Notes under the pieces: generated by a model
Databases searched by the model: none
What the model was told of the DNA's origin: nothing
What the model saw: the letters and a program-made list of their open reading frames with translations, nothing else
In this document: positions 4,219 to 10,445 of the stretch, piece by piece
Numbering within the stretch: position 1 is the stretch's first letter
Layout of the letters: every line of letters begins with the position of its first letter
Translations under genes and position numbers: made by a program
DNA from: Halostagnicola sp. A-GB9-2
Lineage (GTDB): Archaea > Halobacteriota > Halobacteria > Halobacteriales > Natrialbaceae
Length of the DNA: 24,000 bases
Direction: 5' to 3'
Assembly (NCBI RefSeq): GCF_030068615.1
Contig: NZ_JASJOC010000001.1
Span: forward strand, 851,045-875,044

Positions 4219-4335
4219 TGGATATCGTTTATCCAGCTAGTTGTGGGTCACTAGACGGCGAGGGAACGGACCGTCCATCGATCGGCAGTGGAGGTAATTC
4301 GGTCCGTGACGATCATCTCGAGGAAAATACGATCT

Positions 4336-6651
4336 ATGTCAGAGCACGACCCGACCGACGAGACGGACGCTGTTACCGAGCCATCGAACACAACAGAGAG
4401 CCAAGAGGAAGCGACGACTGACGAATCGAACCGAACCGCAGTAAGTGACGGCGGCACTGACGACGAGTCGGGATCTGGGTCCGACTCGAGCCAGGCGGGA
4501 ACGAGCGACGACGCCGGCGAGTTCGATGAGCAGAGCAAACAGGACCAACTCGATGAAGTCCGCGAAAATCCGGAGGGCGAACAGCTAACGTCCGATCACG
4601 GGGTCAAGATCACCGATACCGACAACTCGCTCAAGGCGGGTGAGCGCGGGCCGACGATCATGGAGGACTTTCACTTCCGGGAGAAGATGACCCAGTTCGA
4701 CCACGAGTCGATTCCCGAACGGGTCGTCCACGCTCGCGGAACGGGAGCTCACGGCTACTTCCAGCCCTACGAGGATCCCGACCTCGGCGACGAGTACGAC
4801 GACATCTCGGAGCTGACGAAAGCCTCGGTGCTGACCGATCCCGACCAGAAGACGCCGGTCTTCACCCGGTTCTCCACGGTCGTCGGTTCTCGAGGGTCGT
4901 CCGACACCGTCCGGGACGTTCGGGGCTTCGCGACGAAGTTCTACACCGAAGAGGGCAACTGGGATCTCGTCGGGAACAACATCCCGGTTTTCTTCATCCA
5001 GGACGCGATGGAATTCCCCGATCTGGTTCACGCGATCAAACCCGAGCCCGACGACGGAATGCCGCAGGCGTCGGCAGCCCACGACACCTTCTGGGATTTC
5101 GCCTCCCTCAAGCCCGAGATCACCCACATGGTCATGTGGGTCCTCTCGGGACGGGCCCTCCCGCGAGCCTACCGGATGATGCAGGGCTTCGGCGTTCACA
5201 CCTTCCGGCTGGTCAACGACGAGGGTGACTCGGTATTCGTCAAGTTCCACTGGACGCCCAAACTCGGCACCCATCAACTCGTCTGGGACGAGACCACGAA
5301 GCTCTGGGGGAAGGACTCGGATTTTAACCGGAAGGGACTCTACAACGTCATCGAGGAGGGGTACGATCCCGAGTGGGAGCTCGGCGTCCAGATCTTCGAC
5401 GAGGAACGGGCCGAGGAGTTCGACTTCGACGTCCTCGATCCGACGAAGATCGTCCCCGAGACCGAGGTCCCGGTCCGGCCGATCGGCAAAATGGTGCTCA
5501 ACGAGACGCCGGACAACTTCTTCGCCGAAACAGAGCAGGTGGCGTTCCACCCCGGCAACGTCGTCCCCGGCATCGACTTCTCGAACGACCCGTTGCTGCA
5601 GGGGCGACTCTTCTCCTATCAGGACACCCAGCTCAATCGGTTCAACAGCGCGAACTGGGACGAGATCCCGATCAACCGGCCCATCGTCGAGCGACACAAC
5701 AACCAGCGCGCCGGCTTCATGCGCCAGGAGATCAACGAAGGGAAAGCGTCGTACAAGCCGAACTCGATCGGCGACGACGATCCACAGGAGGTCCCCGAGG
5801 AGGAAGGCGGCTACGAGCACTACGCCGAGAAGATCGACGGGCAGAAGATCCGCAACCGCAGCGACAGCTTCGAGGAGCACTTCGACCAGGCGCGGCTGTT
5901 CTGGAACAGCATGTCCGAGCCCGAAAAGCAGAACATCGTCGACGCCGCCCACTTCGAACTCGGCAAGGTCGACCGCATGGAGATCCGCGAGCGGATGGTC
6001 TACGACCTGTTCAACAACGTCGACCACGAGTTCGCCACACGCGTTGCCGAGGGAATCGGCGTCGAGCCGCCCGAATCGCCCGGCGACGAGCTACCGGACC
6101 ACGACAGGGAGGATCCGTCGCTCAGCATGGAAAACCGGACCCCGGACACGATCGAGACCCGCAAGATCGCGATGCTGGTCGACGACGGGTTCGACGACGA
6201 CCACGTCTCGGAAATCCGATCAGCCCTCGAGGACGAGGGCGCTCGAGTCAAGATCATCTCGGAACTCCTCGGCGAGAAATCGGGGGCCGACGGCGAGACG
6301 GTCGACGCCGACGAGCATCACGTCGCGGCGGCTTCGGTTTCGTTCGACGCGGTCGTCGTCCCCGGCGGCAGCGAGAGCGTCGACGCAATGACTCAGCAGG
6401 GCGATCCGAAACACTTCGTCGCCGAGGCGTTCAAACACTACAAGCCGATCGCCGCGGTCGGTGAGGGAACGGAACTGTTCGAGGCGGTCGATCTGCCGGA
6501 CACCGAAATCGCCGACGACGGCGACCTCGAGTCGGACGCCGGCGTCGTCACCTGCCGGAACGACGACCTCGACGAGTTCCTCGAGGCGTTCGTCGACGCG
6601 ATAGCCGAGCACCGTCACTGGGGGCGGAATCCGAAGGAAGTACCAGCTTGA
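4336..6651 (+). CDS. katE: Large-subunit monofunctional haem catalase (HPII/KatE-like, clade 2) with acidic N-terminal extension and C-terminal DJ-1/PfpI-like domain
   Basis: Catalase core motifs: 'FDHESIPERVVHARGTGAHGYF' (distal His), 'FTRFSTVVGSRGS..RDVRGFATKFYT', 'GRLFSYQDTQLNR' (proximal Tyr). The roughly 150-aa C-terminal 'KIAMLVDDGFDD...FDAVVVPGG' domain is typical of large-subunit catalases. ATG at 4336 (MSEHDP..) is preferred over 4288. Confidence 0.93.
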   Translation: MSEHDPTDETDAVTEPSNTTESQEEATTDESNRTAVSDGGTDDESGSGSDSSQAGTSDDAGEFDEQSKQDQLDEVRENPEGEQLTSDHGVKITDTDNSLKAGERGPTIMEDFHFREKMTQFDHESIPERVVHARGTGAHGYFQPYEDPDLGDEYDDISELTKASVLTDPDQKTPVFTRFSTVVGSRGSSDTVRDVRGFATKFYTEEGNWDLVGNNIPVFFIQDAMEFPDLVHAIKPEPDDGMPQASAAHDTFWDFASLKPEITHMVMWVLSGRALPRAYRMMQGFGVHTFRLVNDEGDSVFVKFHWTPKLGTHQLVWDETTKLWGKDSDFNRKGLYNVIEEGYDPEWELGVQIFDEERAEEFDFDVLDPTKIVPETEVPVRPIGKMVLNETPDNFFAETEQVAFHPGNVVPGIDFSNDPLLQGRLFSYQDTQLNRFNSANWDEIPINRPIVERHNNQRAGFMRQEINEGKASYKPNSIGDDDPQEVPEEEGGYEHYAEKIDGQKIRNRSDSFEEHFDQARLFWNSMSEPEKQNIVDAAHFELGKVDRMEIRERMVYDLFNNVDHEFATRVAEGIGVEPPESPGDELPDHDREDPSLSMENRTPDTIETRKIAMLVDDGFDDDHVSEIRSALEDEGARVKIISELLGEKSGADGETVDADEHHVAAASVSFDAVVVPGGSESVDAMTQQGDPKHFVAEAFKHYKPIAAVGEGTELFEAVDLPDTEIADDGDLESDAGVVTCRNDDLDEFLEAFVDAIAEHRHWGRNPKEVPA

Positions 6652-6685
6652 AAAGTGCCCGCCCAAAAAGTGCCCGCAAAAACCG
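6651..6685 (-). terminator. Oligo-T terminator region for the minus-strand radical SAM gene; contains a tandem 12-nt direct repeat
   Basis: Minus strand reads CGGTTTTTGCGGGCACTTTTTGGGCGGGCACTTTTC, with three T4-5 tracts immediately after the stop at 6686. Plus-strand repeat AAAAGTGCCCGC occurs at 6651-6662 and 6666-6677. Confidence 0.4.
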
Positions 6686-7765
6686 TTATCGAGTCAGCGG
6701 CTGATTGTAGCCGCGTTCGAGGTCCATCACGGCGTCCCAGGTCGCTTCGCACTCACAACTGACCTGCTCGAAGACCGAGGGATCCTGTCGGAGGTCGAAG
6801 TCCTTGATCGCCTTCTGGACGAGGTCGTCACACTCCTTGCAGTTGTGGGCACCGCGGTCGGAGCCGTGGCCGACGGGGTCGGAGACGACGATCGAGTCGA
6901 CATCTGCAGTTTCCTCAAGGACGTGTGCGACCGACCAGAGCCACGGTGGACGATAGCCGTCTCTAAAGTGGAGTTCGTCGACCATGGTGTAGCGCTGGAC
7001 GTTACACGGGTTCATCGAGACGGTGTGACAGCCGGACACGTCGGCACAGCGCTCGATTGAGGAGATCATGTCCTCGACGGCCTCGGGTTCGCTGAGGAAC
7101 GGCGGCTTCATCAGCAGGTACGCTTTGATCCCCGCGTTCTCGACCTCGGCCGCGGTCGAGCAGGCGTCCTCGAAGTCTGCGAAGTCGAAGTACTTGTTCA
7201 CGCAGTCGTGGCGAACCCGATCCGTGGCGGTCTCGAGGCCGATCGCGATGTCGGCCTGGAGCCCTTCGTCGGTGAAGTCCGTGAGCTTCTCGCGGTCGAC
7301 GAAATCGGGCAGGGACTCGAGGACGATCCGTTCTCGGTCGCCGAAGGTTTCGGCGATTGCTCGGCGGGTTTCGGCGCCCACCTCTCGTTCGTCGAGGAAC
7401 GAACCGGAGGTGTAGATCTTGATGAGTGGCGCTGGACCGTCCGCGTTTTCGGCCTCGTGGGAGAGGCAGACGTCGATCTGATCCAGCAGGGCGTCGTGGG
7501 AGACGCTCCCGCCGTCGACGCTTTCGGCGACGTAACCACACATCGTACAGCCGCCGGCGCGGGCCCAGCGACAGCCGCCGGTATTTAAGATGATCGTCAG
7601 ACTCTCCTTGACGCCGTCGGGCGTATTATCCTCGTCGAGCCAAACGCGGGTGGGCTGGTGGGGATCGTAACTCGCCTCCTTCTCGGAGCGGATCTCCCGC
7701 ATCACCTGATTGTGGGCGTCCATGCCCTTGCCCTGCTCGTAGACTTCGGGCGTGGGTGTACTCAT
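6686..7765 (-). CDS. Radical SAM protein, archaeosine-biosynthesis RaSEA family (TIGR01210-like)
   Basis: Cys cluster 'NTGGCRWARAGGCTMCGY' and conserved N-terminal 'EVYEQGKGMDAHNQVMREIR' match my recollection of haloarchaeal RaSEA proteins. C-terminal Cys pairs 'NCKECD' and 'SCECE'. A TATA-like CTTTAGG lies about 25-30 nt upstream of the ATG. Confidence 0.7.
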   Translation of the reverse strand: MSTPTPEVYEQGKGMDAHNQVMREIRSEKEASYDPHQPTRVWLDEDNTPDGVKESLTIILNTGGCRWARAGGCTMCGYVAESVDGGSVSHDALLDQIDVCLSHEAENADGPAPLIKIYTSGSFLDEREVGAETRRAIAETFGDRERIVLESLPDFVDREKLTDFTDEGLQADIAIGLETATDRVRHDCVNKYFDFADFEDACSTAAEVENAGIKAYLLMKPPFLSEPEAVEDMISSIERCADVSGCHTVSMNPCNVQRYTMVDELHFRDGYRPPWLWSVAHVLEETADVDSIVVSDPVGHGSDRGAHNCKECDDLVQKAIKDFDLRQDPSVFEQVSCECEATWDAVMDLERGYNQPLTR

Positions 7766-7870: not shown

Positions 7871-8065
7871 CTACAACCGAAGCTCCCGCGTTTCGATGGC
7901 GTCACAGGACGGACAAACGTGCTGGTAGGAGACTCGGTCACCGCTCGTCCGGACGCGCCATCCGCCGTCGGAGTCGACATATCCGCACTGTCGACACCGC
8001 CGTTCAGTATCATCGAACTTCTGTCGAAGCCGGTCGAAAGGTGATCGGCTCTGTTGGGCAGACAT
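7871..8065 (-). CDS. Small C4 zinc-ribbon protein (64 aa)
   Basis: Motifs 'CRQCG' and 'CPSCD' are separated by about 27 residues, and GC3-rich codon use looks coding. A TATA-like TTATTAA (8088-8094, minus) sits 23-29 nt upstream of the ATG, which is leaderless geometry. Confidence 0.65.
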   Translation of the reverse strand: MSAQQSRSPFDRLRQKFDDTERRCRQCGYVDSDGGWRVRTSGDRVSYQHVCPSCDAIETRELRL

Positions 8066-8165
8066 GTGCTATCATAGGACATGGTGCTTAATAACATTCG
8101 GGGTGCTCGATCCTCGGCTCGCCCAACCACAGTACTTCATAGTGAGCGTCTGCGTACGTAGGGAC

Positions 8166-10055
8166 ATGGATACGTCCGACACGGAGTCGACGGATCAAGA
8201 GTCCGACTCGATGTCGAACGCGACCGTCGCGCTCGAGCAGATGGTCGATCCGGTGGTGACGGTTGCAGACGGGGCGGTTACGTACGCGAACGAAGCCGCT
8301 TGCGAGGAGTTCAGCCTCACGGGCGACGAAGAGGAAGAAGCCACAGACGCCACCCTCGAGGGACGGTGGGCCACACTTCGAGCGGAAATCGACGAAACGA
8401 CGGCCGGGACGGTTCGGGAGGTCAAACTCGAGGACGATGGCTACGACGTGCGTATTCATCGGGACGTCGATGGGGCGACGCTCATCTTCCAGCAAACAGA
8501 GGATGCCAACAGCTCGACGAACGACAGGGCCGTCAAAGCTCGTGCGGTCAACGAGGCACCGGTGGGGGTGGCGATCTCCGATCCGTCGCTCGAGGACAAT
8601 CCGCTGGTGTACGTTAACGACACCTATCAGGACCTATCCGGGTACGAGTTCGAAGACATCGTCGGACGGAACTGCAGAGTTCTTCAGGGGCCGGATTCGG
8701 ACCCCCATGCCGTCGAGGAGATGCGAGCCGCCATCGACGACGAACGGCCGGTGACCGTCGAGCTCAAGAACTACCGCAAAGACGGTACCGAATTCTGGAA
8801 CGAGGTCACGATCGCACCGGTCTACGACGGCCGCGGCGAACTCACCAACTACGTCGGCTTCCAGAACGATATTACCGCCCGCAAAGAGGCCGAATTCGAG
8901 GCCGAGCGACGAACCGAGGAGCTCGAGTACACCCTCGAGCGCGTCGAAGGGTTGATTCAGGATGTCACCGACGTGGTCGCGGGATCGACGACCCGGAGCG
9001 AACTGGAGGCCGCCGTCTGCGATCGCATTGTTGCGGAGTCCGCCTACGACGGCGCCTGGATCGGCGAGCGAAACCCCGAAACCCGCACCGTCGACGTTCG
9101 GACTGCTGCCGGTCGGTCACCGGACGTTCCCGACGAACTCGACGGACACCCGGCAACCAAAACGCTCGAGACCGCCGCGGTTTCGATCGACACGATCGGC
9201 GGATCGACCCGGGCGGCGTTCCCACTGTTTTACAATGATATCGAATACGGGGTCCTTACCGTCCGGACGGGAACCGAGCGAGACATCACCGACCGGGAGA
9301 CCGTTATCCTCTCCGCGCTCGCTCGCGCCGTCGCCAGCGGTGTTAACGCTCGCGAAACCAGTCGAATGCTCGCGACGGACGCCGTCGTGGCCGTCGACCT
9401 CGAACTCACCGACGCGTCGGCCGCACCCGTCGCCGTCTCGCGGGCGACGGACTGTCGACTCGAGTACCGGCGCTCGGTTCACCGAACGGGAGCGAAAACT
9501 TCCTCGTTGTTCACCGCAACTGGGCCGTCGTCGGACGACAGCACGGACGTATCAGCGGCGATAGCAGAAGCCACAACAGCTCTCGACGGCGTTGACCTAT
9601 CGATACTGGTCGAACGTGACGACGAATGTCTGGTCGAGCTCTCGACCGAAGAGAACGTCGTTACCTGGCTTTCCGAACGCGGTGTCAGGACACAGGCGAT
9701 TTCCGCGGAGAACGGGCGGGCACGACTTACGCTCGAGATTCCCCGATCCGCGGACGTGCGATCCGTCATCGAGGCGATCGAGGACCGCTACGACGGCACT
9801 GATGTCATCTCGTTCCAGCACAGGGAGCCAAATGGGGAAACGCGACAGGAGTTCGCCGCTCGTCTCGAGGAGGAGCTTACCGAGCGCCAGTTCGCGTCGA
9901 TTCAACGGGCATACCTGGGCGGCTATTTCGAGTGGCCGCGACCCGCTACGGGCGAGGAACTCGCCGAATCGCTCGGCGTCTCGCGACCGACGTTTCACGA
10001 ACACTTACGCAATGCGGAGGCGAAACTCTGTCGAGCGTTCTTCGGTGACGACTGA
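8166..10055 (+). CDS. Bat-type transcription regulator: N-terminal PAS-like region, LOV domain, GAF-like domain, BAT domain, HTH_10 DNA-binding domain
   Basis: C-terminal 'LTERQFASIQRAYLGGYFEWPRPATGEELAESLGVSRPTFHEHLRNAEAKL' is the HTH_10/bat-type motif. The LOV signature is listed as a separate feature. ATG at 8166 (MDTSDTE..) is preferred over 8064, which overlaps the divergent gene's start. Confidence 0.88.
   Translation: MDTSDTESTDQESDSMSNATVALEQMVDPVVTVADGAVTYANEAACEEFSLTGDEEEEATDATLEGRWATLRAEIDETTAGTVREVKLEDDGYDVRIHRDVDGATLIFQQTEDANSSTNDRAVKARAVNEAPVGVAISDPSLEDNPLVYVNDTYQDLSGYEFEDIVGRNCRVLQGPDSDPHAVEEMRAAIDDERPVTVELKNYRKDGTEFWNEVTIAPVYDGRGELTNYVGFQNDITARKEAEFEAERRTEELEYTLERVEGLIQDVTDVVAGSTTRSELEAAVCDRIVAESAYDGAWIGERNPETRTVDVRTAAGRSPDVPDELDGHPATKTLETAAVSIDTIGGSTRAAFPLFYNDIEYGVLTVRTGTERDITDRETVILSALARAVASGVNARETSRMLATDAVVAVDLELTDASAAPVAVSRATDCRLEYRRSVHRTGAKTSSLFTATGPSSDDSTDVSAAIAEATTALDGVDLSILVERDDECLVELSTEENVVTWLSERGVRTQAISAENGRARLTLEIPRSADVRSVIEAIEDRYDGTDVISFQHREPNGETRQEFAARLEEELTERQFASIQRAYLGGYFEWPRPATGEELAESLGVSRPTFHEHLRNAEAKLCRAFFGDD
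8544..8873 (+). other. LOV (light-oxygen-voltage) flavin-binding PAS domain within the Bat-type regulator; putative photoactive Cys codon at 8673-8675
   Basis: 'ISDPSLEDNPLVYVNDTY..GRNCRVLQGPDSD..VELKNYRKDGTEFWNEV..YVGFQNDIT' aligns block for block with phototropin LOV2 ('ITDPRLPDNPIIFASDSF..GRNCRFLQGPETD..LINYTKSGKKFWNLF..YFIGVQLDGT'). Confidence 0.8.
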
Positions 10056-10226
10056 TCCTGTCGGCAGTACGTCGTTCACAATTCTCGTCGCCCCGCGGGT
10101 GCAAGACGCTTCACAGGGGGACAGCCGACAGTACGGCTGAAACGCCGTCAGCGGCGGATTGAACCCCGGCTTACTCGCCTGTAGTCTAAACTTAGCACTC
10201 GGAACGGTCCCGGACGGTCGGCGGCA

Positions 10227-10232
10227 TTTATA
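10227..10232 (+). promoter_or_regulatory. TATA box (TTTATA) for the DUF1328 gene
   Basis: TTTATA lies 25-30 nt upstream of ATG 10257, consistent with a leaderless transcript. This argues against the GTG start at 10242. Confidence 0.5.
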
Positions 10233-10256
10233 TGCACCGTCGTGATAGCTCGGCGT

Positions 10257-10445
10257 ATGCTGGAACTCGCGACTCCGCTACAAATCGGTGACGGTGGCTT
10301 TCTGTACTGGGCGGTCGTCTTCTTCGTCCTCGCAATCGTTGCAGCCGCGGTCGGTGCTCGCGGTGTCGCCGGAATTTCGATGGAGATCGCACGGATCTTC
10401 GTGTTGATCTTCATCATTCTCGCGATCGTCGCGCTCCTGTTGTGA
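10257..10445 (+). CDS. DUF1328/UPF0391-family small membrane protein
   Basis: 62-aa product with two hydrophobic helices: 'FLYWAVVFFVLAIVAAAVGARGVAGISMEIARIFVLIFIILAIVALLL'. This is the characteristic DUF1328 pattern (helix, 'GFGGIAG'-like loop, helix). Confidence 0.7.
   Translation: MLELATPLQIGDGGFLYWAVVFFVLAIVAAAVGARGVAGISMEIARIFVLIFIILAIVALLL

Follow-up and report, generated by a model that had tools for sequence, protein, structure and literature searches.

The gene considered here occupies positions 8166 to 10055 of a 24,000-nucleotide stretch of the haloarchaeon Halostagnicola sp. A-GB9-2 (contig NZ_JASJOC010000001.1), and this whole stretch is referred to below as the window. It encodes a protein of 629 amino acids, counted from the methionine at 8166, in which a LOV domain stands ahead of the output module of the bacterio-opsin activator Bat, and we call it LOV-Bat. 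The domain order was found to be PAS-like, LOV, helical linker, GAF, BAT and HTH_10. Judged from its sequence, the gene product is probably a haloarchaeal transcription factor of the Bat family that responds to blue light as a one-component system. Its features are as follows, all on the plus strand, with the domains of the protein located by profile searches and in an AlphaFold2 (AF2) model.

8166..10055, plus strand: LOV-Bat gene (open reading frame; domain matches; 98% identity to a Halostagnicola bangensis protein)
8208..8495, plus strand: N-terminal PAS-like domain, residues 15-110 (AF2 topology; orthologues annotated 'PAS+LOV+GAF+HTH')
8562..8870, plus strand: LOV core, residues 133-235 (PAS_9, 3e-24; YtvA, 2e-35; Foldseek template-modelling (TM) score 0.88; residues in register)
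8673..8675, plus strand: codon of Cys170, predicted to form the adduct with flavin C4a (aligned with YtvA C62 and AsLOV2 C450)
8874..8984, plus strand: J-alpha helix and LOV-to-GAF linker, residues 237-273 (a single continuous helix in AF2, starting just after the D-I-T motif at 235-237)
8994..9380, plus strand: GAF domain, residues 277-405 (GAF_2 in relatives; alpha/beta topology in AF2)
9378..9857, plus strand: BAT domain, residues 405-564 (PF15915, 125.5 bits with a cutoff of 25.8, E 2e-36)
9876..10031, plus strand: HTH_10 DNA-binding domain, residues 571-622 (PF04967, 70.9 bits with a cutoff of 23.1, E 8e-20)

The mechanical reading frame is longer (8064-10055, plus strand) and opens with an in-frame ATG at 8064 that overlaps the start codon of a zinc-finger gene on the opposite strand. 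This start was rejected because the orthologues give Met 8166, which leaves 8064-8165 as promoter DNA. The true start should therefore be Met 8166, since the protein then has the same length as that of Halostagnicola bangensis and Met1 does not vary in the alignments of the family. The H. bangensis protein, annotated as 'bacterio-opsin activator domain-containing protein', was the closest match (98% identical), and a database look-up of the exact LOV-Bat sequence returned no record. Full-length orthologues with 51-82% identity were distributed across Natrialbaceae, including Natrinema, Haloterrigena, Natronococcus, Natronorubrum, Halopiger, Halobiforma and others, while relatives of about 40% identity, many of them without the N-terminal domain, were found in Haladaptatus, Halomicrococcus, Halorussus and others. 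The proteins of Haloterrigena turkmenica (D2RWH0, 644 amino acids) and Halopiger xanaduensis (F8D4L2, 658 amino acids) share 60-65% identity with LOV-Bat over the full length, together with the same architecture and neighbourhood, and no structural difference from them was found.

Proteins of this type are not new. Haloarchaeal LOV domains have been catalogued bioinformatically, as the initial annotation of the gene stated: Losi, Mandalari and Gaertner (2014, PMC4844311) reported 167 LOV proteins from archaea. Among those of halobacteria about 30% had HTH outputs, and one of the arrangements was Bat-like. Direct orthologues of LOV-Bat appear in their Supplement S3 as 'PAS+LOV+GAF+HTH', among them proteins from several species of Natrinema and Haloterrigena; that list does not include Halostagnicola. 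LOV-Bat is thus a fresh orthologue of a published class. The initial annotation also stated that no LOV-Bat regulator is known to have a defined photocycle, regulon or physiological role. For Cys-containing LOV-Bat regulators the literature, which was covered incompletely, likewise yielded neither a photocycle nor a regulon or phenotype. What the present analysis adds is the N-terminal PAS-like domain, a linker whose length is quantised in heptads, a zinc-finger/LOV-Bat/DUF1328 core with its own specific promoter block, and the removal of a nearby catalase from the candidate targets.

The LOV domain and its putative flavin pocket

The initial annotation had described the hallmark motifs of a flavin-binding LOV domain in this gene, with the adduct-forming cysteine codon at 8673-8675, and all of them lie exactly where it had placed them: GRNCRVLQG at residues 167-175 (from nucleotide 8664), NYRKDGTEFWN at residues 202-212 (from 8769), and GFQND at residues 231-235 (from 8856). 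The Pfam domain PAS_9 was matched at residues 133-238 (E 3e-24), and the NCBIfam model of the YtvA family over residues 125-254 (E 6e-47). LOV-Bat falls outside the YtvA family proper as defined by the equivalog NF052652, as it scored 160.2 bits with a cutoff of 250 bits, the match covering the LOV and J-alpha part alone (profile positions 3-132 of 243). A phmmer search of the PDB returned 141 chains, and the top listed matches were LOV photoreceptors or engineered LOV fusions, with YtvA first (E 2e-35); the LOV domain of EL222 was matched with E 3e-28. The alignment with YtvA is ungapped up to a two-residue insertion in the H-beta/I-beta loop, at 45-49% identity. Matches of this strength lie well outside the range of chance.

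The register of the pocket residues was read from an alignment of LOV-Bat with YtvA, AsLOV2 and 120 homologues. Residues N169, C170, R171, Q174, R187, N202, N212 and Q233 correspond to N449, C450, R451, Q454, R467, N482, N492 and Q513 of AsLOV2. Seven of these eight (all but R187) were invariant among the homologues, and the position of Cys170 was cysteine in 120/120. In the AF2 model of the protein, which had a predicted local distance difference test (pLDDT) score of 81, the LOV part is folded as a PAS domain, with helices on the flanks of an antiparallel sheet of five strands. It superposed on the LOV domains of YtvA (2pr5) and Meiothermus MrLOV (9vf7) with a target-normalised TM of 0.88 and a root-mean-square deviation of 2.0-2.1 Å. 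The profile matches, the register of Cys, Asn, Gln and Arg, and the predicted fold thus all bore out the assignment to the LOV class.

Two positions depart from the canonical pattern. The motif GRNCRVLQ has Val172 where Phe is canonical, and F, L, V, I or Y stands there in relatives; Arg187 (codon 8724-8726; AsLOV2 R467, YtvA R79), the second flavin-phosphate-binding arginine, gives way to Ala in roughly one in two of the 120 homologues. Both departures would fit a degenerate PAS domain that is LOV-like but binds no flavin and serves for dimerisation or as a scaffold only. We consider this highly improbable, since seven invariant pocket residues are hard to explain without cofactor binding in proteins that have diverged to about 40% identity. 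Moreover, R187 is retained in LOV-Bat itself, and a substitution of the same Phe is compatible with photochemistry: the LOV domain ALovD-1 of Halonotius (Valle et al. 2025, PMC12202551) has Tyr at this position and yet a normal photocycle. ALovD-1 resembles LOV-Bat in being a canonical, Cys-containing, halo-adapted archaeal LOV domain, and it was the first of these shown to photocycle, remaining active in 3 M salt. It differs in its output, which is a histidine kinase of a two-component system. Within the LOV-Bat family, the variation of R187 may reflect a different cofactor preference or affinity.

In Halobacterium salinarum, Bat mediates the control of bop and crtB1 by light and oxygen. We also weighed whether the domain mainly senses redox state or oxygen by reduction of its flavin, in the manner of NifL or Aer, with light being incidental. 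The original definition of Halobacterium Bat was that of a factor for oxygen inducibility whose PAS domain is 'redox-sensing', and this PAS domain is without the adduct cysteine. A precedent is BAT-LOV* of Halorubrum hochstenium (Yee et al. 2015, PMC4682037), in which a LOV-type flavin domain is likewise set within a haloarchaeal GAF-HTH regulator of the Bat type; it binds flavin and changes its conformation on reduction, both chemical and by photoreduction. Models of NifL and DosP also matched the LOV-Bat domain, although more weakly. However, BAT-LOV* has Pro at the position of Cys170, an N-terminal receiver domain and signalling through the flavin semiquinone. A pure redox sensor could dispense with the adduct cysteine, as natural Cys-less LOV* domains show, whereas every one of the homologues of LOV-Bat keeps it. 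In addition, the best matches were all bona fide photoreceptors (E 1e-30 to 1e-35, as against 4e-17 for NifL). A mainly redox-sensing role is therefore improbable in our estimation, and we regard LOV-Bat as likely to be a photoactive LOV transcription factor, a conclusion reached by comparison of sequences and predicted structures.

Linker and output module

The region ahead of the LOV domain had been missed by the initial annotation. Residues 15-110 form two strands, helices and three strands in the AF2 model (pLDDT about 80-88), and they gave no Pfam match and contained no flavin motif. A second LOV domain, or a PAS domain recognisable by sequence, was rejected for this region on an hhalign probability of 7.7% with the LOV profile. 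We term it PAS-like on the strength of its predicted topology and of the published annotation of orthologues.

The LOV core is flanked in the AF2 model by an A'-alpha helix (residues 117-130) and by the J-alpha helix that runs on into the GAF domain. Hydrophobic residues of this linker stand at 252, 256, 259, 263, 266 and 270, a 3-4 spacing. The distance from Gln233 to Gly262 (window 8862-8951) was 29 amino acids in 109 homologues and 36 amino acids (+7) in 12, and no third value occurred. Since the length of the LOV-GAF linker varies by whole heptads only, it is probably a coiled-coil signalling linker, as in LOV proteins of the YtvA/YF1 type, which share with LOV-Bat the D-I-T motif (D-I/V-T), the a/d hydrophobic pattern and a linker length in steps of seven. 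The effector is a different one, being GAF-BAT-HTH_10 and not a STAS domain or histidine kinase. The heptad-quantised linker would favour a dimeric, YF1-like relay over direct caging of the HTH domain as in EL222. EL222, the LOV-HTH protein of Erythrobacter litoralis, is also a one-component light regulator that leads from LOV to HTH, and HTH_10 belongs to the same sigma-4/LuxR-like fold class as its effector. In EL222, however, the LuxR-type HTH packs straight on the LOV beta-sheet, whereas in LOV-Bat the HTH_10 domain does not follow J-alpha directly and begins at residue 571. With about 330 residues (coiled-coil linker, GAF and BAT) between LOV and HTH, the relay must differ from that of EL222.

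The output had been assigned by the initial annotation to a GAF-BAT-HTH_10 module of the Bat type, and this assignment stood. BAT and HTH_10 were each present in 23/23 family members, with the scores listed above for LOV-Bat. GAF_2 and GAF_3 fell below their cutoffs in LOV-Bat (GAF_2 with 19.2 bits against 28.6, E 0.0015), while GAF_2 was found in the aligned region of 16/23 family members, with a best E value of 6e-14. The GAF domain ahead of BAT is therefore predicted through homology and not from the sequence of LOV-Bat by itself. In the AF2 model, the BAT domain spans residues 407-553 and HTH_10 residues 560-626; a separate model of the BAT-HTH part reached a pLDDT of 90 and resolved BAT into tandem beta-alpha-beta-beta units. 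No solved structure close to BAT was found, the best match in the PDB being Ta1207 of Thermoplasma (query-normalised TM 0.43). The HTH_10 fold resembles sigma-70 region 4 (3hug_K, target-normalised TM 0.63), and Sigma70_r4 was matched in 4/23 members.

Neighbouring genes and regulatory DNA

Small zinc fingers of the CPxCG type occur alongside Bat homologues, and in Halobacterium bop is co-regulated by one of them, Brz (Tarasov 2008, PMC2253796). LOV-Bat resembles the Bat/Brz system of Halobacterium salinarum both in its PAS-GAF-BAT-HTH_10 layout and in the small CPxCG zinc-finger gene beside it. It differs in its genomic setting, as neither bop, brp, blh nor crtB was found in the window. Two small genes adjoin LOV-Bat:

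7871..8065, minus strand: CPxCG-type zinc finger of the HVO_0649 family, 64 amino acids, a candidate Brz-like partner (NCBIfam NF041911, 111.6 bits with a cutoff of 70, 1e-32)
10257..10445, plus strand: small membrane protein of the DUF1328 family, 62 amino acids from ATG 10257 (PF07043, 2e-10; conserved neighbour)

The zinc finger carries the knuckles CRQCG and CPSCD and is divergent from LOV-Bat at a distance of 100 bp. In H. volcanii, deletion of HVO_0649 led to less swarming and a weak bile-acid phenotype. The DUF1328 gene had been proposed in the initial annotation as a possible target of light or photo-oxidative stress regulation, along with the zinc finger and the catalase. To follow these neighbours, the window genes were mapped onto 80 related loci from species-representative genomes (60 loci of the Natrialbaceae type and 21 from other families; 81 in total for the catalase). 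Because the 64-residue zinc finger gave 4 matches only as a single-sequence query, a profile was used for it.

Two of the three proposed neighbours proved to be conserved. A zinc finger of the HVO_0649 family lay divergently upstream of the LOV-Bat orthologue in 55/58 Natrialbaceae loci, and DUF1328 directly downstream on the same strand in 55/60. The flanks were less constant: an aldehyde:ferredoxin oxidoreductase (AOR) gene came next in 43/57 Natrialbaceae loci, and a radical-SAM gene was found within 6 kb upstream in 32/58. The catalase gene (4288-6651) was rejected as a linked target, as it occurred within 6 kb in 0/81 loci and H. turkmenica has other genes in that place; its linkage is peculiar to the present window. 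Together with the insertions in H. turkmenica, these counts indicate that the zinc-finger/LOV-Bat/DUF1328 core stays together while the flanks vary.

Outside Natrialbaceae the picture changed. LOV-Bat relatives from the 21 loci of other families had neither conserved neighbour, the zinc finger being absent even by profile hidden Markov model. A pairing of this zinc finger with LOV-Bat beyond Natrialbaceae was also rejected from the side of the zinc finger: in Haloferax mediterranei, Haladaptatus and Haloplanus no Bat-type gene lies within 5 kb of it, and it adjoins a DUF2070 gene in Haloferax mediterranei and Haloplanus and a phosphoglycerate mutase-like gene in Haladaptatus (loci L083, L084 and L085). 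The zinc-finger/LOV-Bat pairing is restricted to Natrialbaceae, so that less can be drawn from the precedent of Brz and Bat.

Several other arrangements were seen among the mapped loci. Short LOV-GAF-BAT-HTH relatives in 4 other-family loci adjoin a different CPxCG zinc finger (MPNCDHCG; MPNCDHCGSYVS...ACPxCS), located at 6596-6745 in L072, 5182-5334 in L073, 7659-7805 in L075 and 7674-7820 in L080; a zinc finger next to a Bat-type gene thus recurs with unrelated zinc-finger families. The genes that Haloterrigena turkmenica (L001) has inserted between radical-SAM gene and zinc finger encode a 222-residue HTH_10 protein with a weak BAT match (6913-7581) and a HalOD1 protein (6555-6866), and a multi-PAS/GAF sensor of 1052 amino acids lies further upstream. 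One assembly, that of Saliphagus sp. JCM 18464, contains four copies of the zinc-finger/LOV-Bat/DUF1328/AOR block (L049, L050, L051 and L065). Three copies stand about 29.5 kb apart on one 72.8-kb contig, and the zinc finger and LOV-Bat of L065 are disrupted; the copies could be a tandem duplication or an assembly artefact. The catalase of the present window is of the large-subunit type with a C-terminal DJ-1/PfpI-like domain and, read from its GTG start, is extended at the N terminus, ahead of the catalase domain, by about 100 residues that are extremely acidic and of low complexity.

Conserved non-coding DNA was found on both sides of LOV-Bat:

8066..8165, no strand assigned: putative divergent promoter region, 100 bp (comparison of 53 orthologous intergenic regions)
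8087, opposite strand: CTTAATAA, TATA-like box of the zinc-finger gene
8136: TATA-like TTCATAG, about 30 nt before the LOV-Bat ATG
8157: CGTAGGG, on the LOV-Bat side of the divergent region
10179..10248, plus strand: conserved non-coding block upstream of DUF1328 (38-sequence alignment)
10179-10196: CTGTAG-N6-CTTAGC, within the DUF1328 upstream block
10213-10223: GACGGTCGGCG, within the same block
10227-10232: TATA box TTTATA, within the same block
10241-10248: CGTGATAG, within the same block

In the divergent region, the consensus on the LOV-Bat side reads CAC..GGTTCTTAGG, then about 10 nt, CGTAGGG and the ATG. Each gene of the divergent pair has a TATA-like box at about 25-30 nt from its ATG, which suggests leaderless transcripts, and the region would act as promoter for both genes. 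Upstream of DUF1328, about 70 nt are kept across genera whose DUF1328 proteins are only about 60% identical, in the order CTGTAG-N-CTTAGC, GACGGTCGCCG, TTTAT, CGTGATAG and ATG 10257. The block is common to the genera of Natrialbaceae, although it is mostly absent in Natronococcus. The window contains a single copy of the CTGTAG...CTTAG motif, as against 0 by chance, and 25/27 of its occurrences in 1.07 Mb of fetched loci were upstream of DUF1328. The conserved start of DUF1328 is the ATG at 10257 (MLE(F/L)A; here MLELA), 25 nt past the TATA box; the mechanical reading frame starts instead at the GTG at 10242, which falls inside the conserved CGTGATAG element.

By eye, the block seemed to contain compensatory hairpins. 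A structured RNA was nevertheless rejected, since Rfam gave no match at E<=1, RNAalifold found 0 pairs in 38 block sequences, and the folding energies equalled those of shuffled controls on both strands (mean z -0.3). The most fitting interpretation of the block is that of a promoter whose operator elements lie both upstream and in the core promoter. What points to LOV-Bat as a possible binder is the adjacency of the two. GACGGTCGSCG was rejected as a repeated site, with 6 matches in the window as against 7.7 expected.

A possible light-responsive switch in Natrialbaceae

Based on the predicted domains, the following course of signalling may be proposed. The LOV domain (133-235) would bind flavin, and blue light would link Cys170 covalently to flavin C4a, with N5 becoming protonated. 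Through Gln233 on the I-beta strand, the change would reach the beta-sheet as well as the helices 117-130 and 237-273. Helix 237-273 is most likely a parallel coiled coil in a dimer, which would hand the signal on to the GAF-BAT module as a rotation or pivot and so alter the engagement of promoters by the sigma-4-like HTH_10 domain. The N-terminal PAS-like domain and GAF may supply further inputs or help dimerisation. The most probable direct targets would be the protein's own divergent promoter, shared with the HVO_0649-family zinc finger, and DUF1328 directly downstream, and the zinc finger may be a co-regulator, as Brz is with Bat in Halobacterium. That partnership is plausible by analogy. 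The identification of DUF1328 and the divergent pair as direct targets is tentative, and we think it somewhat unlikely to hold.

A competing view accepts LOV-Bat as a genuine light regulator and takes the zinc finger and DUF1328 to be mere syntenic passengers, with the regulon elsewhere, for example among carotenoid or photoprotection genes. We hold this to be a distinct possibility. Bat itself controls the unlinked genes crtB1 and blh, in Haloferax, Haloplanus and Haladaptatus the HVO_0649-family zinc finger stands alone, with DUF2070 or unrelated genes next to it, and the LOV-Bat relatives of other families have none of the neighbours. On the other hand, the three-gene core of Natrialbaceae is kept while radical-SAM, AOR and catalase genes change around it, and the additional genes of H. 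turkmenica are placed upstream of the zinc finger. Moreover, the DUF1328 promoter has an unusually conserved upstream block, which is specific to this locus.

Several points weigh against a light-gated LOV-Bat acting on its neighbours. Flavin binding, adduct formation and photocycle, as well as light sensing and light-dependent transcription, are themselves predicted. The affinity for the cofactor or its type could differ, considering Val172 in place of Phe and the frequent Ala at position 187 in orthologues. The relative placement of the domains in the AF2 model is unreliable, given a predicted TM score (pTM) of 0.38. Light need not be the sole or main input, if LOV-Bat is like Halobacterium Bat, which answers to oxygen too. 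The unpaired zinc fingers and the other-family loci that lack both neighbours suggest that adjacency may be inherited synteny and not functional coupling, and a factor other than LOV-Bat could bind the conserved DUF1328 promoter block.

Carried to its end, the proposal is that LOV-Bat of Natrialbaceae and the divergent zinc finger form a light-gated two-protein switch similar to Bat and Brz, which acts on the CTGTAG-N-CTTAG / GACGGTCGCCG block of DUF1328 and on its own promoter. In this full form we put it forward as a speculation that is unlikely to be right in every part. If true, a regulon and a cis-element would for the first time be defined for a LOV photoreceptor of archaea, and DUF1328, which in Salmonella is controlled by RpoS, would be tied to an archaeal response to light stress.

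Physiological outputs are not known for any of the LOV photoreceptors of archaea. The locus described here is a compact system, in which a canonical Cys-containing LOV-Bat, a conserved candidate co-regulator and a likewise conserved candidate target promoter lie within 2.6 kb. LOV-Bat might yield a salt-tolerant optogenetic transcription switch. Its locus could show how a LOV signal crosses the GAF-BAT module, and it could reveal blue-light control in non-phototrophic haloarchaea.

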